64,000 nucleotides of DNA, taken from positions 1 to 64,000 of the IMG/VR virus record IMGVR_UViG_3300025853_000048; one strand, 5' to 3'. The translations under genes and the position numbers were made by a program. Of the stretch, positions 10,082-52,532 are shown in pieces (position 1 is the stretch's first letter; each line of letters opens with the position of its first letter). Below the pieces are notes generated by a model. It searched no databases and had not been told where the DNA came from. It was given only the letters and a program-made list of their open reading frames with translations. The DNA is from a virus.

Positions 10082-12289
10082 TTAGGCAGTTAGTTCGGGG
10101 CGATTCGCCTGAGGCAGCAACATTTCCGGATCTCCGGTCATCATGTCGCCAGCCTGCCCTGGAATGGGTTGATCGGGGATCGGTTGAAAGTACTGTTCCG
10201 GATCGGGAATCTGGTAGGTGTTGAACAAGCGTTCAAAAAGTGGGGCAATCACGGCTTGGGCATGGGCAGGGTAAGCCATGAAGCGTTCCCAGGCGTCAAT
10301 TGCGGCCTGGGTCTGCACCAATTCCTGCTCACCCATGTAGGTCGTCAGGTTGATCTTGATGGTATATTCGAAGTCCCGGATGCTGGCCGGTTCCATCTCT
10401 TCGAACTGGTTGGAGCCATCCTTGAAAAAGGTAAATGTTTCTTTCTGGGAGAGGTTTGCAACGGTGATTTTGGCAAACATCTCGGTGGTATGCTGGAACC
10501 CGGGAATCAGGTGATCAATCAACGGCCCGATCATCTCTTGACCGGCCCTCTCGATATGTCGGATGCCTGTCGCCAGCTTGGCCGTATCCAGTCCTGCCAT
10601 TTGGGAATCATTGGCATTGGCCACTCCTCCCAGAGATTGCGCGTATTGCTGGGCGATTTCGACTATCTTCAGCAGGTAGTCATGCTTGATGTCGGTCAGG
10701 TAAACCCGCTGAATCACATCTTCGGCCTTGTAATCCTTTTTGAGAGTGTAGGTGTGATTATCGTTGAATCTCAGGAACGGGTTGTTATCTCCCTCGTACA
10801 CGCCATCTGGATTGAAGAAATCCACCCCACCTGAATCAGACTGGCTTTTGTTCATGCGATTGATGGACAAATCAATCAGTTCCTGCAATCCCCAAAACAA
10901 CCCAACTTGTGAACAGCCGTACCAACGGTTTTCCACAGGGTTGACTCGGATCACGCGGAATGGCCGGCGACCATCTGCCGTTACCCTGGCCGTGTAATCG
11001 TAGTAAATGGGACGGTTGTTGGTCAGGTCCATGACCAGCATGATTTCTTTTTCCTCGCCCGTGCCGAATACATCAAGACGCATGTAAAATTCGCCAACTT
11101 TGACCACGGGTGAACCCTGGTTTAGATCGGTTTCGTCCATCCTGTCGCCAGCCATGCCAGAGTGCGCCTTGGGCGTGCCGTCCGCTCCTGCCATGCTCTC
11201 CACCATCTCCAGGAAACGAGGATCGGAAATTGCTGCCCCTTCCGTGCCTCGCATGTGGCGTTGCACCAGGTCGGCAACGGCTTCGTCATAGACATGCAGC
11301 ACGCAATTGGCGGTGTCTACTGACTTGGCCTGCAGTGGGCAAAAGAAATTCTGGTAAGGAACCAGATCCACGTCAGCGCCCTCATAATGAACTTTCTGGC
11401 GTCGAACCAGTTGTGTTTCCCAAACCAAGTCCTCTGGTTTGAGAGTCATCGGCGACCGCTCGAGAACATAGACAATCTCGGAATTATCCGCAATTGGTTG
11501 TAAATCAGCGTTTAACAGGTCGCCGGTTTCAGGATCGTGTAAGGCAACCCAGATATCGTCATCAAATATGTAATCGCCATCCTCGGCAGTTAGCGGTTCC
11601 CGGGTAGCAGGATCCACGGCAACAGTAAATTCATCCTCATAGATATCATCGTCTACTTTATAGGTTCCTTTCAAGACTGCCTCACCATTGATAAAAATGC
11701 GGTCGATCGCCTGACCAAGCACGGTTTTGAGTTCGCTCTGCTCCGCTTTGAACTTCAGAAAGTGTTCCTGCAGTTCGGCAATCTCCTGACTCACCTGGCG
11801 CCGCGGGCGAGCCGAAAACCACGGATCGGTCTTGAGGAAATAGTTGTGGACCCGGGAAATCTGGTTTTGAACCTGTGTTCTCGCCGTGGGCAGGGTTATG
11901 TTTTGACTTTCGTAGATGTTCGGAGAGGGGTAGGCGTCTGACCGCCACTCCACATCCTGGTTGAAAAGTTTATCGTAAAGTTCGCGCTTAAGCATCCACT
12001 CCTCATTGAGCGCCATGAACCGACCAGGATCACTGGGAACCTGACCGAGACTGTGATAGCCCATCTCGTTCTCCATCTCCTTCTGACGGTCCAGAGCGAA
12101 CGCAATCATGAGTTGTTCCTGATGGCGATTCAGGCGCAGTGCCGGTCCCTGGAAAACCACCTCCGGGCGTTCGCTTTCGGGTAGACCGCGGGGATAGGCG
12201 CCCTCGTTAATCGGGAAATCATCTTCTCCAGGAAGGTGGGGTTTGCGGGCGCGTTCAAGAAATTCAGAAAGGTGCGAGGACGAGGACAT
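10082..12289 (-). CDS. portal protein (P22/podovirus-like)
   Basis: 735 aa; motifs DPWFSARP, FINGEAVLK, VPYQNFFCP, RRPF...NRWYGCS...LQELID, ATGI; upstream of scaffold and capsid. Confidence 0.8.
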   Translation of the reverse strand: MSSSSHLSEFLERARKPHLPGEDDFPINEGAYPRGLPESERPEVVFQGPALRLNRHQEQLMIAFALDRQKEMENEMGYHSLGQVPSDPGRFMALNEEWMLKRELYDKLFNQDVEWRSDAYPSPNIYESQNITLPTARTQVQNQISRVHNYFLKTDPWFSARPRRQVSQEIAELQEHFLKFKAEQSELKTVLGQAIDRIFINGEAVLKGTYKVDDDIYEDEFTVAVDPATREPLTAEDGDYIFDDDIWVALHDPETGDLLNADLQPIADNSEIVYVLERSPMTLKPEDLVWETQLVRRQKVHYEGADVDLVPYQNFFCPLQAKSVDTANCVLHVYDEAVADLVQRHMRGTEGAAISDPRFLEMVESMAGADGTPKAHSGMAGDRMDETDLNQGSPVVKVGEFYMRLDVFGTGEEKEIMLVMDLTNNRPIYYDYTARVTADGRRPFRVIRVNPVENRWYGCSQVGLFWGLQELIDLSINRMNKSQSDSGGVDFFNPDGVYEGDNNPFLRFNDNHTYTLKKDYKAEDVIQRVYLTDIKHDYLLKIVEIAQQYAQSLGGVANANDSQMAGLDTAKLATGIRHIERAGQEMIGPLIDHLIPGFQHTTEMFAKITVANLSQKETFTFFKDGSNQFEEMEPASIRDFEYTIKINLTTYMGEQELVQTQAAIDAWERFMAYPAHAQAVIAPLFERLFNTYQIPDPEQYFQPIPDQPIPGQAGDMMTGDPEMLLPQANRPELTA

Positions 12290-12371
12290 TCGGAATGAAT
12301 GACGTACAATGACATCGCCCGCAATCTGGCGGATACTTTTGGAAGGGTTTGAGAGGCTACACAGTTTAGGC

Positions 12372-12457
12372 TTGACTCCCTACCTGTCGAATTTGTTATA
12401 ATTGAGTTGGAGCGAAGGTCGCCTGATGCTCCCTCGCTCAACATTAACTGTTATGCC
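12372..12457 (+). promoter_or_regulatory. array A anchor site: sigma70-like promoter, L-box hairpin and R' core (attI-like candidate)
   Basis: TTGACT(12372)-N19-TATAAT(12397) with TGn extension, then a GTTGGAGCG...CGCTCAAC hairpin and GTTATGCC at 12450. Homologous to 47790-47877. Confidence 0.65.
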
Positions 12458-13272
12458 AAGAAAAGATCGAGTTGAGATAACTCCTTTTCGATTCTCTCTT
12501 TAGCAGTTTTAAAGTGTTCCGGGTCTTTTTCGATGCCGATGGCTTTCCGGCCCGTTCGGATTGCCGCGATAATGGTTGATCCACTTCCCATGAATGGGTC
12601 AAGCACGGTTTCCCCTTTTTTCGTATAAGTTTCAGTCATGTATCCGAGCAACGGAACTGGTTTTTCGGTCGGGTGATTCCTGCATTTAGGATCAACCACA
12701 TTATATTTCAGCACCGTCGAAGGCAGTCGCGTTGTATCTCCCCCTTTGTAATTTCGTGTATTCGTCCCGTGGTAGAGAACACCATCACTGCTGCCTCTCG
12801 CACTTTGCGTCGGGTTGTGCCCCCTCGTTCTCTGCGGGTAATATGACCCCGGATTTTGATAGAACACACAAATCTCTTCATGCTTCCTCAACGGTTGCCG
12901 TTTCCCGTGCAGGAAATTAGTAGCCATATTCTTTTCCCAAACCCACCAATATTTAAAGCGACCCTCTTGAGACATCACCAACCTGTGAGTAAACGGTTGA
13001 GAAGCAAACATGACGATTGGGAGTGTTTCGCCTCCAACTTTCCATAGGTCATCCCACGCACTCAGCCAATCTGTGTCATCCCAATCACAGGCGGTCGTGC
13101 CATACGGAGGATCAGTGATCACAGCATCTATACCGTTGAGATGCGGCAGGATTTCCAGACAGTCACCGTGATACAACTCCACACCATCAAAGGCATAACA
13201 AGGCGCAGCAGGTAAGGCCGTACCCTCTTGAGTCGGAGGCTGTACCCTGTTTGATCCTTTGTCCTGCTTCAT
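12451..13272 (-). CDS. N4-cytosine/N6-adenine DNA methyltransferase (beta class), cassette A1
   Basis: GDCLEIL, ITDPPYG, HPTEKP, VLDPFMGSGST, IGIEKD. Confidence 0.9.
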   Translation of the reverse strand: MKQDKGSNRVQPPTQEGTALPAAPCYAFDGVELYHGDCLEILPHLNGIDAVITDPPYGTTACDWDDTDWLSAWDDLWKVGGETLPIVMFASQPFTHRLVMSQEGRFKYWWVWEKNMATNFLHGKRQPLRKHEEICVFYQNPGSYYPQRTRGHNPTQSARGSSDGVLYHGTNTRNYKGGDTTRLPSTVLKYNVVDPKCRNHPTEKPVPLLGYMTETYTKKGETVLDPFMGSGSTIIAAIRTGRKAIGIEKDPEHFKTAKERIEKELSQLDLFLA

Positions 13273-13310
13273 TTGTTCCTCCCGGCCTACCTGTGCTCAA
13301 GCGTTATCTC
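13192..13310 (+). repeat. attC-like site A1
   Basis: GGCATAAC..GCAGCAGGTAAGGCCG...CGGCCTACCTGTGC..GTTATCTC, with two unpaired bases in the left arm. Confidence 0.85.
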
Positions 13311-14092
13311 TGAAATAATTCCTCCTGCACCTCATGGTGCGCCTTTGTTGGTTCGTTCAGCGGCAACACTTCCTGGAGCATCCTTTGAGCCGCTATCTCG
13401 CAGTATTTTTCCTGCATCTCGATTCCTACACATTTCACCCCGGCATCCTTACACGCTCGTAGGGTGGTTCCTGATCCCATCCACGGATCGAGGACGGTTT
13501 GCACGTCTCCAGCTTGCATTAGCGCCCACGCCATCACCGCGAGCGGTTTTTGCGTCGGGTGCCACCGGTCTTCGTTGCCTTTCCGCAACATCCCATGCCA
13601 TTGGTGCCGCTTCAACCTGACAGGACCATCAATATTAGTCCATGCGAGTTCAGCGTCCGCATAGTAATTTTTCCCGTTCTCCTTATCCCACACAAGCCAA
13701 CAACTTGTAACCGGAAGCGGGTAATAATTCCCGCCGAAAATAATTTGGGTTTTACATTTCTCCCTAGCTGTTCTCATGGTCAATTCATCAACAGGTTTCT
13801 CATCCCACTCATTACTCCCATAACTACCTCTAGGAGCTTTAGATTTACCGAACTGTTCTGCCTCTTGATCATCTCTTCGGCCTCGTCGAGCAAGTCCATA
13901 CGGAGGATCGCACAGCAGCAGATCGAACGGCCCCAGATGCGGCATGATCTTCCCGCAATCCCCGTGGTATATCGTCACGTAGTCGTCCGAATAGTAAGGA
14001 GATAACAAGTCGCAGCAGGTAAGGCCATTCAATAGGGTACAATCGTCCACTGTACCCTGTTGAGTCTGTCCTGTATCCTTTGTTTCCGTCAT
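13304..14092 (-). CDS. N4/N6 DNA methyltransferase (beta class), cassette A2
   Basis: YHGDC, LCDPPYG, HPTQKP, VLDPWMGSGTT. Confidence 0.9.
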   Translation of the reverse strand: MTETKDTGQTQQGTVDDCTLLNGLTCCDLLSPYYSDDYVTIYHGDCGKIMPHLGPFDLLLCDPPYGLARRGRRDDQEAEQFGKSKAPRGSYGSNEWDEKPVDELTMRTAREKCKTQIIFGGNYYPLPVTSCWLVWDKENGKNYYADAELAWTNIDGPVRLKRHQWHGMLRKGNEDRWHPTQKPLAVMAWALMQAGDVQTVLDPWMGSGTTLRACKDAGVKCVGIEMQEKYCEIAAQRMLQEVLPLNEPTKAHHEVQEELFQR

Positions 14093-14119
14093 GGCCTACC
14101 TGTGCTCAAGCGTTCTGCT
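13999..14119 (+). repeat. attC-like site A2
   Basis: GAGATAAC..GCAGCAGGTAAGGCCAT...ATGGCCTACCTGTGC..GTTCTGCT. Confidence 0.85.
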
Positions 14120-14360
14120 CGGAATAATTGAAGTCTTTCTCGTATTCTCGAAGGGCGAGCAACAGCCCCGTCGAAACATCTGCGATCCTCTGCGCCTCAC
14201 CCACTTCATTCCTCCGAATGCACAGATAGGCGCGGTGGTTGAGTTCGCGTAGGATTGCCCCGACTTCAGTAGGGTTGTAGATGTCATCCTCGGAAGCAGA
14301 ACAAGTCGTGGATGAACAAGGTTCATTCCTTCCTTCGTCAGTCATTTCACCTGTCATCAC
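14106..14360 (-). CDS. hypothetical protein, cassette A3 (paralogue of the N-terminus of 52533..52925)
   Basis: TEVGAILRELNHRAY...GEAQRIADV resembles ITVGQLLREIVHRCH...DRAKELAEI. Confidence 0.65.
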   Translation of the reverse strand: MMTGEMTDEGRNEPCSSTTCSASEDDIYNPTEVGAILRELNHRAYLCIRRNEVGEAQRIADVSTGLLLALREYEKDFNYSEQNA

Positions 14361-14374
14361 TCATACGTTCTCCC
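14295..14374 (+). repeat. attC-like site A3
   Basis: AGCAGAAC..GTGGATGA...TCATCAC..GTTCTCCC. Confidence 0.8.
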
Positions 14375-14391
14375 ATGGCCTGCTTGGCGTT

Positions 14392-14805
14392 CTACATAAA
14401 CTCGATCAAAGCTTCCCCCGATGATGTGGCGTGCTTCATGTGGATGTTGGTTCCGGAATCCAGGGCAAATATAGCCTCTGTGCCGTCACCACCACGGATC
14501 ACGGACCCGATCTGGTTTTCTGCCTCAGTCGGCGTTGTATCTGCAGCCATCCCGGTATCGCCGGGAGTTTCATCGATTGCTACAGTTATTTCGCCAGCCG
14601 ATTCGTTGGTGATTCGCACCTGATGCGCTCCGGATGGGATCGGAACTGTCAATTCAGTATCTGCCGAAGCGTCAAACGCCACCCGAATATGCTGGTTGAA
14701 AGTCTTGCGGAGATCGGGAACACCGCGGGTAAACTGGAAAGAGGTGTCGCCAAGCGTTTCATTGGACCGTGCTGTCCCGCCGACCATTTTAAGTTCGTTA
14801 CTCAT
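14392..14805 (-). CDS. hypothetical protein, possibly virion-associated
   Basis: 137-aa ORF with a beta-rich composition. Confidence 0.6.
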   Translation of the reverse strand: MSNELKMVGGTARSNETLGDTSFQFTRGVPDLRKTFNQHIRVAFDASADTELTVPIPSGAHQVRITNESAGEITVAIDETPGDTGMAADTTPTEAENQIGSVIRGGDGTEAIFALDSGTNIHMKHATSSGEALIEFM

Positions 14806-14825
14806 AATTAGGGGATAAAGGGTTT

Positions 14826-14975
14826 CTATTTCTCGGTGATCACTTCCTTGGCCAAATAGGCGGCATCTCCAGCCACACGGATAGCGCGAAAGATTTGATC
14901 ATCTGACATGCGGGCGCATGAGGAAGTGGAAACCAGGGTGAAAACAACAAACAAGAGGGGTATCAGGTTCTTCAT
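14826..14975 (-). CDS. small lipoprotein (49 aa)
   Basis: Manual translation MKNLIPLLFVVFTLVSTSSCARMSDD...VITEK; signal peptide with a lipobox-like TSSC. Confidence 0.65.
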   Translation of the reverse strand: MKNLIPLLFVVFTLVSTSSCARMSDDQIFRAIRVAGDAAYLAKEVITEK

Positions 14976-14983
14976 TGGGCAAA

Positions 14984-15011
14984 AGATTAAGTCATCTTAA
15001 CATTTTGGCAA
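14984..15011 (-). promoter_or_regulatory. sigma70-like leaderless promoter of the lipoprotein gene
   Basis: TTGCCA-N16-TAATCT-N8-ATG. Confidence 0.6.
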
Positions 15012-15032
15012 TCATAAACTCTTCAGGGAACG

Positions 15033-15063
15033 AAAAACGGGAAGTCTTGCCCGACTTCCCGTT
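15033..15063 (-). terminator. intrinsic terminator after the giant gene
   Basis: 11-bp stem AACGGGAAGTC/GACTTCCCGTT with a 6-nt loop, running into a T tract on the minus strand. Confidence 0.75.
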
Positions 15064-15134
15064 CCCTGTTTGTGTTTGCTGCGAATTCGTGAATTGGATG
15101 TTTGGTGGAGCAAATTATTCACGAAAGTTTAGTT

Positions 15135-18100
15135 TTATCCCCGGGCATCCTGCCGTTTCTTAATCTCCGCATCGCTCGGTGGTCTGCCGCCCCTACGGAA
15201 GAAGGACTTCCTGGCTGCTGACTGGGCATCGCTGATGCGTTTTTTCAGCCTTTCCTTATCCCTCTCCTTGGGGTTTTTCGCGGCTGATTCGGAGACGCCG
15301 CGTAAAGCTCTTTTGACTGCCACTCCTCGCATCCGCTTCAGTTCATTTTGCTGCAAGGAGGTAAGTTTTACCGTCTCTCCAGTGCGCGGATCTTTGTAAG
15401 TCCTGGTGCTGGTCAAATATGGGTACCACTTCTCATTGGGGTTGGCGTCATTCCAGTTCTTGGCTAGGGTGTCAGCTCTGCGGGTTTCTTCGTTGGGCTT
15501 GATGCCCGCTGCCAAGAACTGGCGACTGAACCATTTGCCGGTCTTTTCAACCGGTTTGCCATCCAGATCAACCTTTTTAGGCGCTCTAACGCCTCCTGAG
15601 ACAGCATTGAGCGTTCTGGCCTTCCAATCCATACCCTTGGTGTCCCGCTTGTAGGGATCGGCGTTACGGATGGTCTGAGGGATGAAATTAGGCATGATCA
15701 TTCTGGACAGGTTTTCAGGGATTTCAGCCACCAAATCAGATGGTTCTTTTCTTCCCGCTCCTCCCAAAAGGCTAGTCAGGGCATTAACTCCGCTCAACGG
15801 CGTACCTTCAGAGATGTTGTATTGAGCTCGTCCAATCACATCATTGAAGATCGAAGCGATATCCTCACCGTTACGGAGTCCCGTAACGCTGCGGTTCAGA
15901 TCAACCAAACCGGCGATAATACCCGATACCGGATCCAGCTTTGCGTAAGAGAATACCGGTTTACCCTTCCAAAGAACCATCATTGGTCCGCCCTTCATGC
16001 GGTTGAGCAATTCCAGACTGTTTTTGTCCTCTACTCCAAAAGCCCGGGTGCCGGTGATGCTGATTAGTTTATCCTCGTCATCGTCCTCTCCTTCGCCTAA
16101 AGCACTGAGAATCAGAAGTCCAATGGCAGCGATAGCCTGATCAGCTACATCGCGCAAGAAAAGCCCTGGAGTGTCACCGTTGTATTGCTCGATGAACGTT
16201 TTGCCATTGCTGCCCTTAACCGTTGCTGCCCATCCCATCTTGCCGAGTACCGGCAACAGGTTGAACCCAGTTCTCCGCAAAGTTTTCTTAGTCAAGTTGT
16301 AGGGAGTCGAAACAAACGGGAATATGATCGTCAATCCGAGTTTGGCCATTGTCCCGGCCCCGGTATCCTGTTTGAAATCAAGTAACTTGCGGACTGCGTG
16401 ATCTGCCAGGTTGCCGCCGTCTTTTTTCCTCTTGATTTCATCCTGTGAGGTGATCGACTTGCCGAACTCATTAGCCAGCACCCATGCGTCACTGCCGAAG
16501 ATGCGGACTTCGCCAGCCATGAATTTCTCTAACGCGTTGCCAGTCAACCCTTTGGCTTTGCCGAGTCGGTAAGCTTGCGCCCAAACATCCAGGTGGTTGC
16601 CGAGTGACTGGAAGAACACATCCATCGTGGAAAGAATACGGAACGAGGTTCTTGCTATCTCACCCCATCTGCCGCCGATAGCGGTGCGAATCACATCCAC
16701 CTTGCCACCGTGCTCAACGTCGGACTGGGCTGTGATCTCACTCTCCAGGATATTGCCGTCTTGTGCCTGGACTGTTCGGGCAGCGAATGATATCGCTGCC
16801 TTGACCGCTTTCGGCCAAGCTTTCCGCATGTATTTGAATTCTCCAATCTGAGGCCCGGATGGGTCTTTGATGATCAGGTTCAATGCCGCTTCCATGCGCC
16901 TCTGGATAACGTGTTCCAGGCCGAAGTTGGCAACGTTGGCAAAGATGTTCATCGCCTGAGTTCCGACTCCTGAAAGCATCGCTGATTGCATGTACTCAGT
17001 AAACGAATCAATGATGTTGCCCATCGCGGCATTGGAGTAGTTGATCAGGCGGGTGATTTGCACCTCGTTTGTCGGATCGAACTTACTGCTGTCGAACACG
17101 TCCTGCATACCAGTTATCCCCGGCATCTTCGATACGGCTTTATTCATCAGCGCCAATCGCTCCCTGTTGATCCTCCTGGCGCGTCGTAACCGCTCATCCT
17201 GTGTGATGCCCCGGTCATTAATCTCGGCGCGTTGAGCGACCCGCGGGCGGGCTAGAATGCGAGCGTAGCGGTCTAACTGTCGTTCACGCTTATTGGTGTG
17301 TGGATCCCCCCTGTTCACCGCGTCACTGACTGAGTAGGCCAGTAGCATCGCATCGTCAATTGCTGCCTGGTTGCCGCTCGCCAGGGCATCTGCCATGACC
17401 TGCGGTAACAGGATTTGAGCCACCTTGATGTCAACCGGTTTGGTCAGGGTCAACTGGTTGGCCGCATCCTTGCCGACACTGGCCACTGGTTGTCTAATCG
17501 TGTCCAGCAATTCGGACAAGAGTTGGGCACGATCTCCTTGCGCTACCCGCTCCCGGGCAGCGTCATCCCATTTTTCGTGGGATTCGCGGTCATTGGCGGG
17601 CAGGTCGTCCAGATTGACCGGCTGGTTCATCTGGTTCGCGGCAGCGGTCGCCGCGGAGTAGAGGCTTAAATTAGGCTCGGTCGATTCAGCTATTTCTTTC
17701 AATGCTGCCGAAACTTCGGGATCGTTGACGTGTTGAGCAAATTGCCCAGCCGCCATTTTGGCATCATCCAGTTCCTCTACTTCGTGTTCCTGTAGCTCGA
17801 AAACCATGCCATCTTCATCTCGGTGGCGAAATGTCAGTCGATTGATTTGCTGAATCAGGTTACTTAACCGCTGTCCCTGGTCCTCGTCCTCAATATCAGA
17901 CATCAGGTTTTCATCCGGTTCGCCAAACGATGCAACAATCAAACCCGTGTGGCCGCTGGTGGAAATCCTTTGAAAGGTGGAACCCTTGGCCATATTATCC
18001 TCGACGAACTTCTCAGCTTCCTCCCTAGTGTTAAATCGCTTGGCCCATACGATCGGCTTAACTCCATCCACCTCAGTGGAAAACCGGATAGTTACCAAAT

Positions 18101-43985: not shown

Positions 43986-44252
43986 TGAGGGGAGTTATGT
44001 GGGGAAATTGGAAATGTTTAGTGCGGTGAAAGGTGGAGCTCCGTGTCAAATTTCGTCGTCAGAGATTATCAGTTTGGGATCCCTGATCAAAGTTCGTCGG
44101 TTCTTGGCTTTCTTCTTGGCCATCGCTTTCTTTTTGCGCTTCTTCAGCGGCATTGGCAGCGGCAGGCCGAGGCGGGAAAAATGCTTCGGCATGAACTCCG
44201 GGTCGTTATCCCGGAGAGTGACAGCGTTGGTTCCTGTGTGGTTATCCATAAC

Positions 44253-45128
44253 TTACAGTTTTGCGAAAAGATCCCTCCGGGCGTTTACCTTCTTCTGTGA
44301 TTTAGGCGCATCTTTCTGACGTGAATCCATGGTCGAATCCCACACGCTGGAGAAGCGGTTTTCTGCGGTCGCGTAGTCTTTCTTTTTCTGGGCTTTCGCC
44401 TTATCGCGTTCAGCGATCTTTTTATATTCAGCGTCAATCTTGGCTTGCGTGCCGGCACTTACTCCGGACCGCTTGGCTAATACCCCCTGGTTGCCTTTTT
44501 TACCTGTGTCGGCGTCTCCAGGAGTTTCCATGAAACCTTCCTTTTTACCTGGCGGCAGGTCTTCGGGCTTTTCTTTCCCGGGTTGCGGTTTAGCGGCCTG
44601 ACCGGCTGCTGGTAAACCCAGCCTGCCATTGTTGTCCTGCATCTCGCGATTGGATCGCACATCCAGCATGTTGGCTCGATTCTCGTATTTCTTGCGAACC
44701 GAGTCATGCAGGTTTGCGTACATGCTCCGGGCCTTCTCCTCTGCCTGTCCCTGGTTCAACCCTTTAAATGGGCCTTCCCGGTAGATGAATCCAGGCTTCT
44801 TACTGCCGCCTTTCATCCGCGGGGTTCCGCTCAACGCCAATCCACGGGAAAGGAACGCCTCAAACCCGCCCGCACGGCGGTTTTGGGATGGTGGAATCAG
44901 CGGTTTTGCTGCCGCTGGCTTATCTGCCGCTGGCTTATCTGCCGCTGGCTTATCTGCAACGGCGGCTTGCTGACCCTGGCCTGTCGGCGCGTTCTGGCTC
45001 ATAGGCTTCGGGGCTTGCGGCGATCTGCCAGACGACATGATCGAAAAGCTGGTGCCGCCTTTGGGTTCTGAAATGCCCGATGCGGCCATTTCCTCAGGAG
45101 TCATTTTCTTTTTAGGGAGTTGATACAT
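44253..45128 (-). CDS. basic low-complexity protein, possible internal virion protein
   Basis: 291 aa, Lys/Ala/Gly/Pro-rich, ADKPA x3 (15-bp tandem repeat); upstream of the giant gene. Confidence 0.65.
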   Translation of the reverse strand: MYQLPKKKMTPEEMAASGISEPKGGTSFSIMSSGRSPQAPKPMSQNAPTGQGQQAAVADKPAADKPAADKPAAAKPLIPPSQNRRAGGFEAFLSRGLALSGTPRMKGGSKKPGFIYREGPFKGLNQGQAEEKARSMYANLHDSVRKKYENRANMLDVRSNREMQDNNGRLGLPAAGQAAKPQPGKEKPEDLPPGKKEGFMETPGDADTGKKGNQGVLAKRSGVSAGTQAKIDAEYKKIAERDKAKAQKKKDYATAENRFSSVWDSTMDSRQKDAPKSQKKVNARRDLFAKL

Positions 45129-45146
45129 AGTGGATGGGAGTAAAAT

Positions 45147-45536
45147 CTAACTTGCCGGGGCCAGTGATCCGCCGTTTTCCAGGGTTTCGCGGATATGAGC
45201 CATCAACGCGTCTGCCTGTCGGCGACCCATAGCACTCATCGATGCAATCTTCGCCCGGAGCTCCTGGATACGTGCTACACGGTTCTGCTGTTCGCTCCGA
45301 TTGCGTTCCAGGGCTTCCTGATCCCGCATGATGGCGTGGACCTGCTCCTGATTCTCGAGACGGGCAATCCGCTCTTGGTTGATTCGGATTTCCCAGGCCA
45401 TCTTCCGCTTATTGAACTTCGGCGGACCTTTGATAAACTTACTCCGAGTGGAGTAAGAATCAGTGTGGCGGATATGGAGCTTCTTCGCCTTTCGGCGGGC
45501 TTTATGACGGGCGCGGTATTGTTGGCTTTTCGACAT
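45147..45536 (-). CDS. hypothetical basic coiled-coil protein
   Basis: 129-aa ORF; TTGATT-N17-TAAAAA-N8-ATG upstream. Confidence 0.6.
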   Translation of the reverse strand: MSKSQQYRARHKARRKAKKLHIRHTDSYSTRSKFIKGPPKFNKRKMAWEIRINQERIARLENQEQVHAIMRDQEALERNRSEQQNRVARIQELRAKIASMSAMGRRQADALMAHIRETLENGGSLAPAS

Positions 45537-45769
45537 ACAACCGCTTTTTAGAGCGAGTTAGCCGAATAATCAAAACCGTGGCAACAGGTGGTTCAATATG
45601 AGAGAGTTAAATATTGCCCCCTTTGATTTTTGAAAGCAATAATGGAGGATTTGATATACCTACCTACCTATCATGATGGCTTGATCTATGCCTATGCCGC
45701 TAGTTTGAAAACAATTTCACTTCCTCGCCGTTGAAGATGTAAATTCCCTTCTCCGGCATCACTTTCTCA

Positions 45770-46336
45770 TTAATTCGCGAATCCTTCGGTTGCTCTATGC
45801 CCGCACCTTGCGTAACACTTTCGGACGTTCTCCCACGCTTCCCTGTCGCAATCCATACCCAGAGGGCGGAAACTGGAATCTCCTCTTTCTCTCTGATCGT
45901 CATCATGATTGAATGCTGCCTCCAATTCCTTTTCGATCAATGCTTGTGTGTTGGGGTTTATTTGATCCCAGTTTTCTGCCAGGGTTTCAGCGAACAGGAT
46001 GGTCGAACCCGTCATGCGTCCAAGATAGTAGCGGAACGAACAAAAGATCAGGTCATTGATATCCCAGCACTTCTTCTGAGGATTATCGTGTGATCTCAGG
46101 ATGGCTATTGCCTCATTCTCTGATAAACCATTCTGATCGAGGTAAACTCTTAGCAAATCAGCGAACTCGACTTGTTGGTACCGCTTGAGTCTGGCTCGGT
46201 CGGGTTGCGTGTCTAGCCAACTGGCTGAAACAGCGTAGCACCAGGCCAACGTGGTTGTAAGTTCTGATTGATCGAGTGCTGATACCCTCTTTGATTCCTC
46301 GGTAAGAAGATCGATCGCTGACTTTGACTTGCTCAT
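45770..46336 (-). CDS. hypothetical protein
   Basis: 188 aa; contains SFRYYLGRMT and GMDCD...W, seen in small phage proteins. Confidence 0.65.
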   Translation of the reverse strand: MSKSKSAIDLLTEESKRVSALDQSELTTTLAWCYAVSASWLDTQPDRARLKRYQQVEFADLLRVYLDQNGLSENEAIAILRSHDNPQKKCWDINDLIFCSFRYYLGRMTGSTILFAETLAENWDQINPNTQALIEKELEAAFNHDDDQRERGDSSFRPLGMDCDREAWENVRKCYARCGHRATEGFAN

Positions 46337-47445
46337 TATTCTTCAACCATGCTCACCTGGACTTCAACAGTGGGATCTTCTCCGTTAGTAACGACGGTGA
46401 AACTGGAAAACCCTGTTGGTTGGTCTCCGTCCTGTGCGTCTCCCATCGCTCCTGTATTGGCATGAGTTACGGTAACGACGGATCCTGAAGCACTGGCTGA
46501 ATAATCTGCATCCCCATTAATCGCTGCGGCAATGGTGGTTGCCAGGGTGTCATCATCCATTGTATCAGTCACTGTGGTTATCTCTACGCTTCTGGTTAAT
46601 GCTGCAGACCCTGATGGTTCTGCGGTCCCCGTGTCGCCAACGTCAATCCAAAACCCCACTGTTCCTGCATCATCACTGAGTTGGATGTAGGTGCCATCCA
46701 GAACGCCCTGATCAGCCCCGTTTGTCGTGACGGTAAAGTCGGTAAATCCTGTTGTTTGAGCTCCGTCTTCCCCGTCCGCTACATCTCCCTCGGTGGCGTG
46801 GGTTACGGTAACGACTGATCCGGAAACCGTAGCAGAAAATTTACTATCAGCATTAATCGCTGTGGCCATCTTGGCTGCTACAACTAAAGCCGTGTCGTCA
46901 GTGGCAATTGTTGTTACCTCAACACTTCTGGTCAGTGCCGCAGATCCTGCCGGTTCACTGGTTCCCGAGTCATCGGTATCAATCCAGAACCCTACGGTAC
47001 CGGACTCGTCACTGAGTTGGATATACTTACCATCCAGAGAATCTGAAACATCCGCAACAGCCGTGAACGTTTCGACCTGGGCGACCGCTCCGGTCCCCGT
47101 CACATCGAATGACTCGACCTGGGCAACGACATAACTTTTAAGATGTAACGCGTTGCCGTTTAACCGCATGATAAATGACTCGCCAGGGTTGATCCGGAGC
47201 GGGTAGTTGGTTCCGTCATCGCCGGCCCTGACGTAATTGGTTGCATCCAGGTTTTTGATCCGGGCAACTCCAATAGTTGCAAGATCTCCCTTATCAACTG
47301 ATATGCCAGAAGAGGTGGCGGATGCGATGGTTTCCAGGTACAGATCGCCAGAGACATCGATTTTTTGCTGCTCGGCAGTCCGTTTGAGACTGGCGCCGCC
47401 TTTATCAAATTCGAATGATGTGAGTAGGTTTATTTCGTCGGCCAT
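46336..47445 (-). CDS. putative virion structural protein with an internal duplicated domain
   Basis: Two ~120-aa repeats (LDG.YIQLSD..GTVGFWID....GSAALTRSVE.TT....SGSVVTVTHA). Confidence 0.7.
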   Translation of the reverse strand: MADEINLLTSFEFDKGGASLKRTAEQQKIDVSGDLYLETIASATSSGISVDKGDLATIGVARIKNLDATNYVRAGDDGTNYPLRINPGESFIMRLNGNALHLKSYVVAQVESFDVTGTGAVAQVETFTAVADVSDSLDGKYIQLSDESGTVGFWIDTDDSGTSEPAGSAALTRSVEVTTIATDDTALVVAAKMATAINADSKFSATVSGSVVTVTHATEGDVADGEDGAQTTGFTDFTVTTNGADQGVLDGTYIQLSDDAGTVGFWIDVGDTGTAEPSGSAALTRSVEITTVTDTMDDDTLATTIAAAINGDADYSASASGSVVTVTHANTGAMGDAQDGDQPTGFSSFTVVTNGEDPTVEVQVSMVEE

Positions 47446-47512
47446 GTTATTTGGGGGTTGGTGGTTTTAATAGGGGGTATTTATAACACCTTTATTTACA
47501 AAACTTAAGTAA

Positions 47513-47770
47513 TTATTTCACCTGGTAAAAGAAAACTCCCTCCCGGGAATCAAGATTGATTTCGCCGATGAACACCATGTTTTGAAGCAGGGTGATCCAC
47601 CATTCCAGGGATCGTTTGCGGTTTCGATAGAACTTGTTGAACTCAGTGGCGGTTTTCTCTCTGTGGAAATATTGCTTTAATTCTGCTACCTCTTCCGAGA
47701 AGGCCTTGATTTCCTTGCGGATCTCCTTCTTGCGTCGGGATATGCTTAGCTCTGCTGTTGAGTTCTTCAT
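47513..47770 (-). CDS. hypothetical protein
   Basis: Likely start MKNSTAEL at 47770 (85 aa). Confidence 0.5.
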   Translation of the reverse strand: MKNSTAELSISRRKKEIRKEIKAFSEEVAELKQYFHREKTATEFNKFYRNRKRSLEWWITLLQNMVFIGEINLDSREGVFFYQVK

Positions 47771-47789
47771 GATTGTGGTGGTTTTTGTC

Positions 47790-47877
47790 TTGACTGGGTG
47801 GGTTGCGGTTCTGTTAAAATGATGTTGGAGCGCGAGGTCGCCGAGGGCTCCCCGGCTCAACTAATTACTGTTCTCCT
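47790..47877 (+). promoter_or_regulatory. array B anchor site: sigma70-like promoter, L-box hairpin and R' core (attI-like candidate)
   Basis: TTGACT(47790)-N19-TAAAAT(47815) with TGn extension, GTTGGAGC...GCTCAAC, and GTTCTCCT at 47870. Confidence 0.65.
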
Positions 47878-48739
47878 GAGATAACTGCTCCTTAAGTTCC
47901 ATCAGTTCATCAATGATTTCATCCTGGCGCCAAGGGTCAATTTTTTCCCATTCCATTTTCGTGTCCAAGTCCTCTCTACCACAGGAATCCACGCGCATCA
48001 TGCAGTTCAGAATCTCTGCCGCCACCTGCGGCACTATCGCGTTTCCGAGTCCTCTAAGTCGGTCCAATGCTCGGGGTACCCCATCAAAATCTCGACAGAA
48101 ACAGGATCCCATTTCAATTTGGCGTATTCCGTTCCCCTCAATTTGTTTTGGCTCCCACCTGCTTCCTGGACTGTTCCGTTCCATTTTTCGCTTCCCGCGC
48201 ACGGCGTGGGCAAGAATCCAGACTCTATCTCTCCGATGTTGCGCCCCGATGGCACAAGCCGGAATAATGATTGCCTGCGCGGAGTAGCCAATCCCCTCCA
48301 AGTCAGAAAGCACTTCATCGAGGCCCATCGTGATGTGACCAGCAACATTTTCACACAATGCCCAACGGGGTCGGAGGTGTCCAAGAATTCGCAATAGTTC
48401 CGGCCAGAGGTGACGGTCATCTTCCGCGCCTCTTCGCTTCCCGGCGCTACTGAAAGGTTGGCAAGGGTATCCTCCGGTAATAAGCTCAATTGTTCCATAG
48501 TTATCAGGGTCTAAAGTTTTTACGTTGTCGTGGATTGGTACGCCGGGGAAGTTCTTCGCCAGCACCTTTTGCGCCCATGGGTCTACCTCGCAGAACCCCA
48601 CGGTTTCGATTCCTCCGACCATGCGAGCTGCCAGGGCGAAACCACCGATACCGGAGAACAGGTCGAGATGCCGCAAAGGAGAACAAGACGCAGCAGGTAA
48701 TGCTTCATCCCGTTGGTCTGTTCGCATACCTGTGCTCAT
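47861..48739 (-). CDS. C5-cytosine DNA methyltransferase, cassette B1
   Basis: LDLFSGIGG, GGYPCQPFS, ENV, QHRRDR, LGNAIVP. Confidence 0.92.
   Translation of the reverse strand: MSTGMRTDQRDEALPAASCSPLRHLDLFSGIGGFALAARMVGGIETVGFCEVDPWAQKVLAKNFPGVPIHDNVKTLDPDNYGTIELITGGYPCQPFSSAGKRRGAEDDRHLWPELLRILGHLRPRWALCENVAGHITMGLDEVLSDLEGIGYSAQAIIIPACAIGAQHRRDRVWILAHAVRGKRKMERNSPGSRWEPKQIEGNGIRQIEMGSCFCRDFDGVPRALDRLRGLGNAIVPQVAAEILNCMMRVDSCGREDLDTKMEWEKIDPWRQDEIIDELMELKEQLSQENSN
48034..48498 (-). CDS. alternative-frame ORF overlapping the C5-MTase
   Basis: 154-aa ATG-started ORF with MEQLSLLPED...EARKMTVTSG...LPTP...VEILMGYP..WTDL, a pattern I recall from overprinted frames of phage C5-MTases. Confidence 0.5.
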   Translation of the reverse strand: MEQLSLLPEDTLANLSVAPGSEEARKMTVTSGRNYCEFLDTSDPVGHCVKMLLVTSRWASMKCFLTWRGLATPRRQSLFRLVPSGRNIGEIESGFLPTPCAGSEKWNGTVQEAGGSQNKLRGTEYAKLKWDPVSVEILMGYPEHWTDLEDSETR

Positions 48740-48749
48740 ACGTTCTGCT
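48677..48749 (+). repeat. attC-like site B1
   Basis: AGGAGAAC..GCAGCAGGTAATGC...GCATACCTGTGC..GTTCTGCT. Confidence 0.85.
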
Positions 48750-48811
48750 AGTAAATCCCCATCATCATCTCATCCTCTCCTCCAGCACTTTCCACGAAGG
48801 AAATAGGGGCA

Positions 48812-49147
48812 TTAGGATTCCACTTTTCCGCTTTCTCTTGCTCTGATCCATCCGTCTTCCCAGACGTTGGCGATGATATTTTCGGCGTCTCCTTCTCCGA
48901 GTCCGTATTCGAGGAGGATGTTTCTGATTCTGTGGTAGTATTCATTGTCTGTAAATCCGAGCCAGTCGCGACCCCAAGGGGATCCTGTGCAATCTGTTCC
49001 CGAGAAGTCTATCTTGATATTGATGTCCACAACCCCGTCAGCAGAACAAGACGCATCAGCCAATGACTGTTCTTTAGGTTTTTTATCGTCTGATTCCGTT
49101 GGTTTATCGTTTTGATCACTCATCGTTTTTTGTGGTTGCGCCGTCAT
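48812..49147 (-). CDS. hypothetical protein, cassette B2
   Basis: 111-aa ORF starting inside attC B2. Confidence 0.6.
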   Translation of the reverse strand: MTAQPQKTMSDQNDKPTESDDKKPKEQSLADASCSADGVVDINIKIDFSGTDCTGSPWGRDWLGFTDNEYYHRIRNILLEYGLGEGDAENIIANVWEDGWIRARESGKVES

Positions 49148-49169
49148 GGCTGTGCTTCAGCGTTCTCTC
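49040..49169 (+). repeat. attC-like site B2
   Basis: AGCAGAAC..GCATCAGCCAATGAC...GTCATGGCTGTGC..GTTCTCTC. Confidence 0.85.
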
Positions 49170-49170
49170 T

Positions 49171-49995
49171 TTAAAATAACTCCGGTTGAGGTGGGGCGTG
49201 GTGCTCGGCTTTCGGCTCCGAGAAGTCGAGGACTTCCTGAAGCATCCTTTGGGCTGCTATCTCGCAGTATTTCTCCTGCATCTCGACCCCCACGCATTTA
49301 ACCCCGGCATCTTTACAGGCTCTTAACGTGGTCCCTGATCCCATCCACGGATCGAGAGCAGTTTTTACATCTCCCGCCTGTTGGAGTGCCCACACCATTA
49401 CGTCCAGAGGTTTCTGGGTTGGATGGTCCCGCTTTTCCGATCCTTTTCGAGCCATTCCATTCCACAGATGTTTTTTTATTCGCATCGCTCCATTGAGATT
49501 GTTCCACGCCATCTCACCATCAGCGAAGTTTCCATTCATTTCCTTATCCCAGACTAGCGGCCCTTTGCACGGCGGCAGATCGTAGTAATTCCCCCCGAAT
49601 ATGATTTGTTTTTCGCAGATATTCCGCGCCAGTTCCATTACCCATCTTGGGACTGGTTCTTTATCCCAGTCGGTCAGTTCGTAGGTTCGCTTCGCAACTC
49701 TCCGATGTCCGCTCCCTACTATATTCCCGCTTGCTTTGTGCATCGCTTTATCGGCTCCGATACCATAAGGTGGATCACACAGAAGCAGATCAAACCTCCC
49801 TAGATGCGGCATTATCTTCCCACAGTCGCCGTGATAGATCGTCACATAATCGTCCTGGTAGTAGGGACTGTACAGTGTACAGTCATCCGCTGTACACTGT
49901 ACAGTCGGCTCGTCTGGAGAGAACAAGACGGTGGAGCCAATGCTATCCTCTATGTCGTTTTTCGTGGTTTTCATCGTCGTTCGTTCGGATCGCAT
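49171..49995 (-). CDS. N4/N6 DNA methyltransferase (beta class), cassette B3; close paralogue of A2
   Basis: LCDPPYG, HPTQKP, LDPWMGSGTT; long stretches identical to 13304..14092. Confidence 0.9.
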   Translation of the reverse strand: MRSERTTMKTTKNDIEDSIGSTVLFSPDEPTVQCTADDCTLYSPYYQDDYVTIYHGDCGKIMPHLGRFDLLLCDPPYGIGADKAMHKASGNIVGSGHRRVAKRTYELTDWDKEPVPRWVMELARNICEKQIIFGGNYYDLPPCKGPLVWDKEMNGNFADGEMAWNNLNGAMRIKKHLWNGMARKGSEKRDHPTQKPLDVMVWALQQAGDVKTALDPWMGSGTTLRACKDAGVKCVGVEMQEKYCEIAAQRMLQEVLDFSEPKAEHHAPPQPELF

Positions 49996-50017
49996 GGCTC
50001 ACCTTTAGCGTTCTAAT
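49917..50017 (+). repeat. attC-like site B3
   Basis: GAGAGAAC..GGTGGAGCCAATGC...GCATGGCTCACC..GTTCTAAT. Confidence 0.85.
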
Positions 50018-50468
50018 TCAGTGCCTCTGGGTAACAAATATACTCGCCCAGCTTCTCCATACGATACTCCCAAATACCGCCTTCCACCCGCTTCTTATGG
50101 ACATCGTAGCGACTGCCTAAGACCTTGTGGACCTTATCCTTGCGGAGATCTCGCAACCTGGCTGATATACCAGCCGCGGACTCTGGCGGATAGCCTGCTT
50201 CCTGGGCGATGTCCCCTAAGGTGCGCCACTTGCCATCGGTCATCACCTCGTAAACGGCGGTCAGTTGTTTGCCTAGTCGTTTCGTGTCCTCCGCTTCGAT
50301 ATTCGGACCATCAAAATTGAACTCATCTTGCTCTATCATCTCTCTCTCTTGTCTTTTTAGGTTGTAGATACGGTTTTCCCACTTTTCGGCCCGCTTGGAA
50401 TCGCCCTTCTCCAGGGCGTTTTCCATGTAGATACCGGCCTTGCAAATTCTCTCGTCGATATCGGTCAT
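50013..50468 (-). CDS. winged-HTH DNA-binding protein
   Basis: VYEVMTDGKWRTLGDIA...ISARLRDLRK...WEYRM. Confidence 0.7.
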   Translation of the reverse strand: MTDIDERICKAGIYMENALEKGDSKRAEKWENRIYNLKRQEREMIEQDEFNFDGPNIEAEDTKRLGKQLTAVYEVMTDGKWRTLGDIAQEAGYPPESAAGISARLRDLRKDKVHKVLGSRYDVHKKRVEGGIWEYRMEKLGEYICYPEALN

Positions 50469-50821
50469 CTTTTAAAACTGGATAGTTTTTTGTCGCAGTA
50501 TATCTCTTTGTCATATTCTACATCGGGATCAAACCTCCATCCAGATCCGTGTGGTCTTTCGACGCTCCCTCTAACTACCCTTCCTGTTGCAAATTCAACG
50601 CATTGATACCACTGCATTTCATCTGCTTGCTGCCAAGTAGCGACGATTTCTTCAACGGATTCGAACGAGCCTACATAATCAGACCATCCACCACCTGCAT
50701 AGTAGCATTGTGGAGATCCAAACATTAGGTACGGTTTAGTTGTATTAGCTCTGAGAATGGCTACAGCTTGGCTTTCCGTTATGCCTATCTCGTCAATTGC
50801 TTGTGCTAGTATATCCATCAC
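50465..50821 (-). CDS. hypothetical protein
   Basis: 118 aa; 4-nt overlaps with both neighbours. Confidence 0.6.
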   Translation of the reverse strand: MMDILAQAIDEIGITESQAVAILRANTTKPYLMFGSPQCYYAGGGWSDYVGSFESVEEIVATWQQADEMQWYQCVEFATGRVVRGSVERPHGSGWRFDPDVEYDKEIYCDKKLSSFKR

Positions 50822-51036
50822 TTCACCCCAATCGCCTTTTTGATTTCTTCAGTCGATCCATCTCCTTCCAGCATCTCGATCACTTCGGAAAAAGGTTTGA
50901 AATGCGGGTTGCTCGATTTGCTCTCTTCCGCTCGCGACTGATTTGACAGTCCTTTATTCCGAAAAATCCGGTCGTAGTTGGCGCGAAACTGATCGCCGTT
51001 CACGGGTCGTGGTTTATCTCCTTTGCCTGCACTCAT
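50818..51036 (-). CDS. conserved small phage protein
   Basis: N-terminal GKGDKPRP...F..NYDRIF motif. Confidence 0.65.
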   Translation of the reverse strand: MSAGKGDKPRPVNGDQFRANYDRIFRNKGLSNQSRAEESKSSNPHFKPFSEVIEMLEGDGSTEEIKKAIGVK

Positions 51037-51195
51037 CTTAATCTCATCTCATCTTGCACGGAAGCCCGAGGCAGGATTAACCAAGGTAAAAAACACTCTG
51101 CCCCGGGTTTCGTGATCTTGGCGGCAGTCTTTTTGGAACGCCGCCCCAACAGGGCATTGTATGGAAAAATTGATTGTTTTCAAATGTTAATTTGC

Positions 51196-51489
51196 TCATT
51201 TTCGGCCCTCTTCAGCAACCCGGACTGCGTTGCGGACCAGGCTGGTGAATATTGACAACTGGGTCTTGGGGGGTGCGCTCCTGTGTCCCCGTTCCCGTGC
51301 CATGTGGAAATAGCCGCAGAATTCGCATTTGTAGACAATCAGCGGGGTTCCGGATTTCTTCTCTGATTGCGCTTTAGCGGTCAGTGCGAGTTTGCGCCTT
51401 TTGTAAGCGTGCTTGCCGCATTTTCGGGGTAGTTTGGCGACCTTTTCGTGTGCTCTGCGTTGCCTAGGTTTCTGTGTTCTTTTGCTCAT
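51196..51489 (-). CDS. small basic Cys/His protein
   Basis: CGK..Y...A...YKCEFCGYFHM. Confidence 0.6.
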   Translation of the reverse strand: MSKRTQKPRQRRAHEKVAKLPRKCGKHAYKRRKLALTAKAQSEKKSGTPLIVYKCEFCGYFHMARERGHRSAPPKTQLSIFTSLVRNAVRVAEEGRK

Positions 51490-52531
51490 CTTTTTCGCTC
51501 AATACGTTGGTTTCAAAAGCCCCGCTCATATTGGTGTGGTTGTAGGTCTGGTTCGTTATATCCAAACCGCTATGCCCTAGTTTGTAACTGATCTCCTCCA
51601 GCGTCATGCCTTTCTGATAGGCGTGCGTGGCGACCGAGTGACGCAACATGTGCGGTGTGCATTTCGGCAACTGGTGTGCCTTGCAAAGTTTGTTCAGAAA
51701 ATCATTTACCCAGTGCCGGGAGTAGCCCACCCATTGCCCATGTACCTTGTGCGAGAAGATCGGTTCAGTCTCATCGTCGCGGCCTTTGTCCTGGATGTGC
51801 TTTTCGATCCTGACAGCGATCCTGTACGGGATCTCCACTCTGCGTGTCTTCTTGCCCTTGGTGTTCTCTGATCGAAAAATGAAATAATGCTGCCCTGTGG
51901 CACCGTCTCTGCGGAAGTCCTGCGCCTGGAGTGATATGAATTCCGTTACCCTGGCACCAACTGAGTAGAGCGTGTAGAACGCCAACCATCGGATCTGATC
52001 GGCTGTTCCTGCCGTGCCTTTGTCCTTGCGTTCTTCGAGCACGTCCAGCCATCGCTCCACCTCCGGTTCACTCAGAACCTTGTCTTCGATGATTCTATCG
52101 GGCCGCTGCAGTTCGATTTCAACTCCGACGTTATACTGTAGATAACCCAGTCTTTGCGCGTATGACATCAGGGATTTAATCGGATCAATGCGAGTGCGGA
52201 TCGATGCGGGTTTGAGCGTCTGTCCGTTGGGTAACGTTTCCGCTTTGACCTGATCGACGTATTCAGTCATGTCTGCCAGGGTGACGGTTCGTAATGGTTT
52301 TTCCCAGCCGATAAAATCTCGGAACTTGCGGATATTGAGCGCGTAAGTCTCCTGCGTGTTCTCCGATGGACGGGAGCGGATAAACATTTCGATTAGGTGA
52401 TCGTCGTCCCGAGCTCCGGACATATCCGGTTTCGGCTGGTGCGGGTGGTCGATCGGGGTGCCGACTGCATACTGCTTCCGCTCTGCGATGTCGCCAGGTT
52501 CGGGGTCCAGGATTTCGAATTCTTCAGGCAT
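51464..52531 (-). CDS. tyrosine recombinase (XerC/D-like)
   Basis: SAM-like N-domain (SENTQETY); catalytic R (GARVTE), K (TKGKKTR), HxxR (HMLRH), H (LGH), Y (QTYNH). No IntI-specific insert visible. Likely start MPEEF at 52531. Confidence 0.9.
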   Translation of the reverse strand: MPEEFEILDPEPGDIAERKQYAVGTPIDHPHQPKPDMSGARDDDHLIEMFIRSRPSENTQETYALNIRKFRDFIGWEKPLRTVTLADMTEYVDQVKAETLPNGQTLKPASIRTRIDPIKSLMSYAQRLGYLQYNVGVEIELQRPDRIIEDKVLSEPEVERWLDVLEERKDKGTAGTADQIRWLAFYTLYSVGARVTEFISLQAQDFRRDGATGQHYFIFRSENTKGKKTRRVEIPYRIAVRIEKHIQDKGRDDETEPIFSHKVHGQWVGYSRHWVNDFLNKLCKAHQLPKCTPHMLRHSVATHAYQKGMTLEEISYKLGHSGLDITNQTYNHTNMSGAFETNVLSEKDEQKNTET

Positions 52532-52532
52532 T

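Follow-up and report, generated by a model that had tools for sequence, protein, structure and literature searches.

The viral record studied here is 89,449 bases long and about 86% complete; the window, i.e. the whole stretch of DNA that was analysed, corresponds to its first 64 kb. According to the ORF list, nearly all long ORFs of the window lie on the minus strand. Two sites in it harbour related elements, designated A and B. Element A is located between the stop of an ORF coding for an N6/N4 DNA methylase (12451-13272, minus strand; Pfam PF01555) and the start of the portal gene (10082-12289, minus strand; Pfam SU10_portal), which begins to the left of the element. Element B is located between the stop of a C5 methylase ORF (47861-48739, minus strand) and a small minus-strand ORF starting at 47770. 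To the right of each element, three imperfect palindromes resembling attC sites are found. Their left arm, A[GT]AACAAG, is found at exactly six positions of the whole record (13195, 14002, 14298, 48680, 49043 and 49920), and the right arms of all six palindromes end with CGTT[AC]T. In these cassettes, attC also holds the start codon of the gene. The first cassette of array A (12451-13200, minus strand) extends over 750 nt from TT to its own ...GGCATAAC and lies outside element A.

Relatives of the portal protein were found neither in viral contigs nor, by tblastn, among 50,697 phage records. Distant blastn comparison of the region 12000-15200 with phage records gave a sole match, the methylase gene of two Aeromonas phages. 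A Shine-Dalgarno-like word precedes only 20 of 82 chosen sense-strand ORFs. Neither in the window nor in L025 was a tRNA or tmRNA detected. At 15036-15063, just past the stop of a 9,595-aa ORF, a clear hairpin with a T-run is present, and the gene-sense strand reads there as an intrinsic terminator. Finally, an attC remnant at 62600-62660 consists of loop and right arm (92% similarity to 49963-50012) and is devoid of the left arm; its start codon opens a frame that stops after 5 codons.

Anatomy of elements A and B

The earlier note had regarded 12372-12457 and 47790-47877 as homologous to each other, and this is borne out by global alignment, in which 59 of 83 aligned columns are identical. 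Divided by parts, identity amounts to 21/35 in the promoter part and to 38/48 from the hairpin to the terminal G. Local score of A against B is 29 (1000 shuffles: maximum 18, mean 7.7). All motifs listed in that note were found at their positions in both elements. The borders need adjustment, as the last 7 bases of each interval (TTATGCC and TTCTCCT, respectively) are already part of the first cassette: in reverse complement, they match exactly the left end of the attC carried by this cassette. The element itself is a unit of about 80 nt, extending from TTGACT through the G of ACTG/TT (slash marks the putative recombination point).

On the plus strand, element A opens with the -35-like hexamer TTGACT (12372-12377), which is also present in B and reads TTGACC in a third version of the element; the spacers behind it diverge. 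After 19 nt, the -10-like hexamer TATAAT (12397-12402) is found, with the TG of a TGn motif at 12394-12395. Then follows an imperfect hairpin of 37 nt (12406-12442; GTTGGAGCG ... CGCTCAAC), whose arm ends with GCTCAAC, then ATTAACT, and then G/TT at 12450/12451. The segment from GCTCAAC over 7 nt to the G (12436-12450, plus strand) resembles an inverted core-site arm with spacer and crossover G. The putative recombination point is placed at 12450/12451, where identity of the copies breaks after ACTGTT, the TT being cassette-derived.

Organization of element B is analogous. The TTGACT hexamer (47790-47795, plus strand) is separated by a 19-nt spacer from TAAAAT (47815-47820), which together with TG at 47812-47813 makes up a TGn plus -10-like segment at 47812-47820, plus strand. 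The imperfect hairpin is 38 nt in length (47824-47861) and is followed by TAATTACT and by G/TT at 47870/47871, the putative recombination point; GCTCAAC is here 8 nt from the G (47855-47870, plus strand). The loop block AGGTCGCC is kept between A and B. The stop codon of the first cassette ORF of array B (47861-47863, minus strand) lies inside the element, which thereby supplies the last codons and the stop.

The 10-mer GTCTTGACTG, located over the -35-like hexamer of B, has exactly three copies (47787, 63468 on the minus strand, and 63567). The latter two make up inverted repeat I23, which surrounds the start of ORF 62656-63486. If one mismatch is allowed, 7 occurrences were found against a mean of 3.7, which is not above chance.

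Copies in other contigs and the cassettes behind them

In total, 13 copies of the element were detected. Two of them are those of the window; the other 11 come from viral and metagenome contigs (L008, L013, L027, L028 with two copies, L041, L047, L049, L051, L056 and L058). Among 21 viral stretches matched by pattern, two (L008 and L013) contain true copies and the other 19 are chance matches; among 33 metagenome stretches, true copies are found in eight, i.e. nine copies as L028 bears two, and the other 25 are due to chance. When bacterial and archaeal genomes (one for each of 185,579 species) were searched with one element pattern, all 36 matches were chance and no true copy was retrieved. 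A pattern with free loop yielded L008 and L013 again and no new hairpin variants; its match in L059, lying inside a 1184-aa ORF, was rejected as chance. An nhmmer profile of the three element versions, run against L059-L075 and the genome, detected A and B only. All copies originate from a few related freshwater or estuarine sample series, and L008, L013, L056 and L058 look like one phage.

The B-type hairpin is present in all 11 outside copies. When copies are anchored by their hairpins, identity ends right after ACTGTT in all 13, and nine different sequences then follow. In 12 copies, the 8 nt starting with GTT recur 233-815 nt downstream as exact reverse complement followed by AAG[AG]CG. 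This recurrence falls on the left arm of attC and is the mark of an integron-type cassette, in which the remainder of R' pairs with its own R''. The expectation that copies are followed by attC-bounded cassettes is thus borne out in 12 of 13 cases. The thirteenth copy (L028 at 12347) has 552 nt of downstream sequence, too short to judge; its cassette is a 99% match to the 750-nt cassette of the window.

Three cassette types are first behind the element in one phage and internal, behind an attC, in another. The cassette with a 111-aa ORF is second in array B of the window and first in L047 and L051 (87% over 102 aa), and the first cassette of L013 is the second cassette of L027. The cassette of the methylase 12451-13272 heads the array in the window, where the element is of A type, as well as in L028 (99%), where it is of B type; in the L051 array, this cassette is internal (96% over 273 aa). 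The element, for its part, remains constant: 65 of 65 positions of B (47813-47877) are identical in L008 and L013, and their flanks are otherwise unrelated, as these contigs share with the window otherwise only genes that lie at the record's ends in the window.

The element resides in at least four different left-hand contexts. To the left of A lies the portal gene, to the left of B a small ORF, and in copies of the L013 type a 445-aa ORF is found there. In L027 and at L028 12347, the left neighbours are lysis genes encoded on the strand of the cassettes; in L047 and L051, they are lysis genes of the other strand, which run toward the element. At L028 8093, a second, convergent cassette array takes this position. 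In this last copy, hairpin and G/TT are kept and the promoter half is missing, which indicates that the promoter is not needed for a dock to exist. The region L028 7600-9000, in which two cassette arrays converge on one hairpin, is peculiar also in other respects. Cassettes of the opposite strand end there at an inverted attC arm that is fused 9 nt before the hairpin, in the place of the promoter half; on the other side, the first cassette has an attC without right arm. The region looks like an inversion or a hybrid site.

Reads were compared over 44000-53999. The freshwater runs X7 and X13 each contain one contig in which 47869 is joined to 48742, so that the second cassette adjoins the element as it does in L047; these joints lend weak support to cassette variation, their short side being 25 letters only. 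Two further joints, 47874 to 49920 and 47876 to 48731, also have short sides and may come from relatives. In addition, a 980-nt contig of X7 joins 48506-48673 directly to 47031-47842, stepping back by 1643 nt; it may be an assembly artefact.

Part of the earlier proposal, namely that the element is a platform of attI/Pc type, agrees with these data: the element is constant, the cassette varies exactly at G/TT, and attC-bounded cassettes follow in 12 of 13 copies. Its other part, a Pc-like promoter, is a prediction from sequence and is treated below. Comparison of the copies thus supports the view that the element represents a constant docking end of the arrays, apparently attI-like in position and behaviour.

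Predicted promoter and hairpin

Hexamers of element A (TTGACT and TATAAT) match the consensus in 11 of 12 positions and those of B (TTGACT and TAAAAT) in 10 of 12, with TGn in both. Twelve of the 13 copies retain TTGAC and TAWAAT, across three divergent spacers (19, 19 and 18 nt). Two left contexts of the third element version share sequence only from 4 nt upstream of TTGACC. In the 89-kb record, TTGAC-N17-21-TANAAT has three occurrences on the plus strand and none on the minus strand, the mean of 200 shuffles being 0.44 per strand; the third occurrence (56556, plus strand) precedes a real plus-strand ORF. Sense-strand promoter candidates of the phage itself resemble sigma-70 promoters, too, and its sense gaps are enriched in TTGACA (6 found, 2.1 expected by length). 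In all 12 promoter-bearing copies, the predicted promoter is directed into the array and antisense to the first cassette ORF, precisely as the earlier note had described for A and B.

Several observations count against promoter function. The optimal spacer of sigma-70 promoters is 17 +/- 1 nt, and spacers of 18-19 nt are longer than this optimum. The 19-nt spacers of A and B exceed the range of 16-18 nt (the third version has 18 nt), and A and B were not listed by a promoter scan allowing such spacers only. No gene is found in the sense direction of the predicted promoter, and the copy at L028 8093 does without the promoter half. Moreover, docks of another type (see below) possess TATAAT or GATAAT 5 nt before GTT and no -35, so that TAWAAT may be a feature of the recombination site and not a -10 box. 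Since both hexamers are conserved over divergent spacers, a promoter is nevertheless probable, and we lean slightly towards the view that the unit carries a sigma-70-type promoter reading into the array, antisense to every first cassette.

Orientation of this putative promoter bears on one of its suggested roles, exposure of single-stranded attC. By integron convention, the plus strand is here the top strand, as single-base bulges are on its R''-L'' arm; the folding bottom strand is therefore the gene-sense strand (for the rule on top and bottom strands, see PMC9892861 and 10.1101/2022.09.11.507474). The predicted promoter would use the bottom strand as template, like Pc, and would not expose it. 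Folds and strand rule taken together thus argue against this role.

Other promoter-like sites were noted in the record. The one at 56556 (TTGACT-N16-TATAAT, plus strand) is located 8 nt before the ATG (56592) of an ORF ending at 56999, from which a small minus-strand ORF (56330-56513) diverges. The segment 56556-56999 represents a plus-strand module in an otherwise minus-read genome, situated among repeats at 54135, 55354 and 58318 (family D16). A fourth plus-strand site, TTGACT-N16-TATATT, lies outside the window in an intergenic gap (86148-86270), with an ATG 7 nt after it that opens a frame of 29 codons. TAnnTTTG is absent from sense-strand gaps of the whole record. A minus-strand promoter of the portal gene (TCGACA-16-TAAACT, 12390-12363) was considered and rejected for lack of conservation in B.

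The hairpin folds better on the gene-sense strand. In A, folding energy of RNA is -20.5 kcal/mol on the minus strand (z -3.1) and -16.5 kcal/mol on the plus strand (z -2.0); in B, values are -18.4 kcal/mol on the gene-sense strand and -15.3 kcal/mol on the plus strand (z +0.37). The difference is partly due to one G-U pair on the gene-sense strand that is an A-C mismatch on the plus strand. Comparison of A with B reveals one clean compensatory pair (A-U to G-C), and a second one if the bulge is placed differently; with one compensatory pair in two hairpin variants, covariation is not significant, 246 of 500 shuffles being as good. A peptide encoded across the hairpin was rejected, because reading frames differ between A and B.

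Seen on the gene-sense strand, the hairpin follows closely on the stop of the last cassette, and it is found between convergent genes in L047 and L051 and at L028 8093. In B, the hairpin is followed on this strand by AUCAUUUU, UUUU coming after four other bases; in A, no U-run follows the hairpin. A terminator scan called neither A nor B on either strand, and the same scan called 15036-15063. It is conceivable, although we consider it the less probable case, that the hairpin marks a transcript end or serves as an insulator.

Relation to attC sites and integron platforms

Elements A and B are not similar to the six attC-like sites, as the earlier note had pointed out: local scores are 5-12 in either orientation, which equals background, and the six sites score 10-56 among themselves. 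Descent of the element from the attC family of 49920, with which it shares similar arm words, was rejected on the same ground, local alignment being at background. Folding of single-stranded DNA leads to the same distinction. Two attCs of the window close with an AAC/GTT stem on both strands; both strands of A and B form the internal hairpin only, with flanks unpaired and no closing R''/R' stem. Since this stem cannot form, the element was rejected as an attC. The statement that AAT of the -10-like box takes the place of AAC in R'' is only roughly right, as AAT is 3 nt from the stem and AAC in attCs is 6 nt from it.

We considered three other explanations of the element. One of them, close to the locked attC of the earlier note, holds that it is a degenerate attC, which belonged to a former last cassette, lost the R'' arm, is no longer excisable and marks where the array ends. 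The order of boxes (GTT-type arm, AAC-type arm, spacer and GTT) indeed recalls three of the four core sites of attC, and the flanks stay unpaired, so that the absence of a closing stem stands. Similarity to attC does not, alignment to all six attCs being at background. Nor does the element move with one cassette, as an attC would: it has nine different neighbours, at different genome positions, and as it remains in place when cassettes vary, it is not the site of a particular cassette. We regard such an origin as quite unlikely; as it concerns origin, it would in any case be compatible with use of the element as a dock.

The remaining two explanations invoke transcription. According to the former, the hairpin is a terminator or insulator ending an accessory operon, the promoter is an unrelated antisense or regulatory start, and the inverted GTT-type arms form a secondary insertion site like attG. 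Position of the hairpin right after the last cassette stop, on the strand where it folds best, its location between convergent genes and the AUCAUUUU tract of B would suit this explanation. So would reports on other systems: in phage TJE1, an attC cluster borders a predicted terminator with two inverted GTTRRRY motifs (PMC9892861), and integrases can insert cassettes at GWT sites of genomes (10.1101/2022.09.11.507474). Such attG sites are described as secondary, double-stranded targets outside attI and attC, with GTT or GWT at the cleavage point, and cassettes inserted in them depend on nearby promoters (10.1101/2022.09.11.507474). They are numerous and weakly defined; here, one long conserved unit is reused. 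On the other side stand the negative terminator scan for A and B and the lack of a U-run in A. Further, nine junctions at one G/TT together with the conserved loop block AGGTCGCC point to a reused sequence-specific site. This explanation therefore appears unlikely to us. The latter assumes a small RNA gene whose promoter and hairpin would make a short structured RNA of the plus strand, adjacency of cassettes being secondary. Hexamers would indeed place the start at the first bases of the hairpin, and hairpin and loop are strongly conserved. Yet the whole window contains no Rfam family at gathering thresholds, and matches around both elements are at chance level only (E 1.7-5.4). The plus strand carries no U-run and folds more weakly than the minus strand (z +0.37 for B), and one copy is without promoter. 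We give this last explanation hardly any credence.

We therefore return to the element as a dock. In our opinion, each element is probably the fixed docking end of a row of integron-type cassettes, as judged from sequence comparison. Cassettes, which carry their own folded attC, would be joined to the phage genome at G/TT by a tyrosine recombinase, as happens at attI. The GCTCAAC of the hairpin 3' arm, 7-8 nt before the crossover and inverted with respect to GTT, would provide the geometry of a 'simple site' to which the recombinase may bind. Transcription from the putative promoter would start at about the first base of the hairpin and read into the array. The recombinase may come from elsewhere and act on the docks in trans.

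As to candidate enzymes, no integron integrase is present in the record, which at about 86% completeness could be missing one, nor beside A or B. A Xer-like tyrosine recombinase of 373 aa (51464-52585, minus strand), 1.4 kb past the far end of array B, is a candidate only. Its product contains PF00589 (73-75 bits), and its PDB matches are Xer proteins, with no IntI among them. In NCBIfam, XerA, XerD and XerC score 92-97 bits and TIGR02249 46 bits (cut-off 265), all below cut-off. A second tyrosine integrase, of phage type (391 aa, at 81.7-82.2 kb), is encoded outside the window, in the region 81663-82960; apart from these two, no recombinase was found in the record. A T-arm-like word, GGTTCGATTCC, lies about 0.7 kb from it, and no whole tRNA was found there by ARAGORN. 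This region may be an attP built on the 3' end of a tRNA; if so, the phage would be temperate. The L013 record contains no integrase.

Arrays of other phages were collected by means of the methylase cassette and parsed by complementarity of cassette ends. As this parsing also gives false pairs (for example five on the plus strand of the window, 1765-2682 nt, without attC arms), only rows with attC-like arms or with a dock after AAC were used. Docks of these phages read AAC/A..., with A past the crossover where attCs have G, and contain an AAY word 4-8 nt from GTT. In L067 and L069 (5686-9989) and in L068 (7572-12528), such a dock terminates arrays of backward cassettes, up to eight in number, and the last cassette differs between L067 and L068. 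The dock is located 49 nt before the gene of a 321-aa IntI-like recombinase, whose best family is TIGR02249 (194 bits, below the cut-off of 265; one stretch, positions 14-314 of 315). With the window, these docks share the backward array, the ATTATA/TATAAT motif and AGTTAAT as the first 7 bases after AAC/, as in element A; unlike A and B, they have neither hairpin nor -35 and are adjacent to a recombinase gene. The same kind of array thus exists with an IntI-like enzyme beside its dock, and docks of the window are orphans. Since docks of the other phages lie directly beside an IntI-like gene, a recombinase acting in trans may serve those of the window. The available stretches of element-bearing contigs gave no match to the IntI-like protein of L067, and the product of 51464-52585 is 26% identical to it over 208 residues.

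Integron platforms include an attI site and a Pc promoter (PMC4618277; 10.1101/2022.09.11.507474), and attI1 contains a simple site of two inverted integrase-binding sequences together with DR1 and DR2 (PMC4618277). Like attI, the element is constant at the head of a cassette array, with the junction at G/TT. The GCTCAAC arm fits RYYYAAC, the inverse core of integrons, and precedes GTT by 7 nt (A) or 8 nt (B), as in the simple site, and GTTGGAG in the 5' arm and GTTAWAA, overlapping the -10-like box, are direct GTT-type words reminiscent of DR1 and DR2; both likenesses are resemblance only. The predicted promoter points into the array, like Pc. In contrast to integron platforms, the element has no adjacent intI and the record no IntI-type enzyme, cassette genes run against the predicted promoter, an internal hairpin of 37 or 38 nt is present, and the element occurs at two places in one phage as well as in unrelated flanks in other phages.

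Phage-borne attC clusters without integrase (CALIN) have been described by Qi (2023), several of them with DNA methylase cassettes (PMC9892861), which is a feature they share with the arrays of the window. Shewanella prophage M16-3 has the same attI in two places, at the head of a complete integron and at that of an array lacking the integrase (PMC9892861). The clusters shown as typical in that report have cassettes in the usual orientation, and the parts of it available to us describe neither a recurring shared dock with different first cassettes nor a dock promoter. Our limited literature search, which covered printed texts, found no promoter- and hairpin-bearing orphan dock shared by phages. 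New here are the anatomy of the dock (hairpin, inverted core arm and conserved hexamers), the element copies in further contigs with their nine junctions, with none among 185,579 species genomes searched by one pattern, and the connection with a dock of different construction that adjoins an IntI-like gene.

Going further, one may speculate that the unit of about 80 nt is a portable landing pad, passed among phages that have no integrase of their own and rely on recombinases acting in trans, with promoter and hairpin as parts of the mechanism; we regard this extension as improbable. For example, antisense transcription or extrusion of the hairpin could make the double-stranded site accessible to recombination, or could keep a freshly docked methylase gene silent until needed. 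Bacterial integrons are not known to possess such a regulatory layer.

Phages escape restriction by carrying DNA methylases. A shared dock for methylase cassettes would explain fast exchange of these genes among unrelated phages of one water body, and orphan docks raise the question of the enzyme that serves them. In integrons, as a rule, Pc expresses the nearest cassette. A conserved promoter directed against its cargo, unlike this rule, would be a simple testable case of array control outside bacteria.
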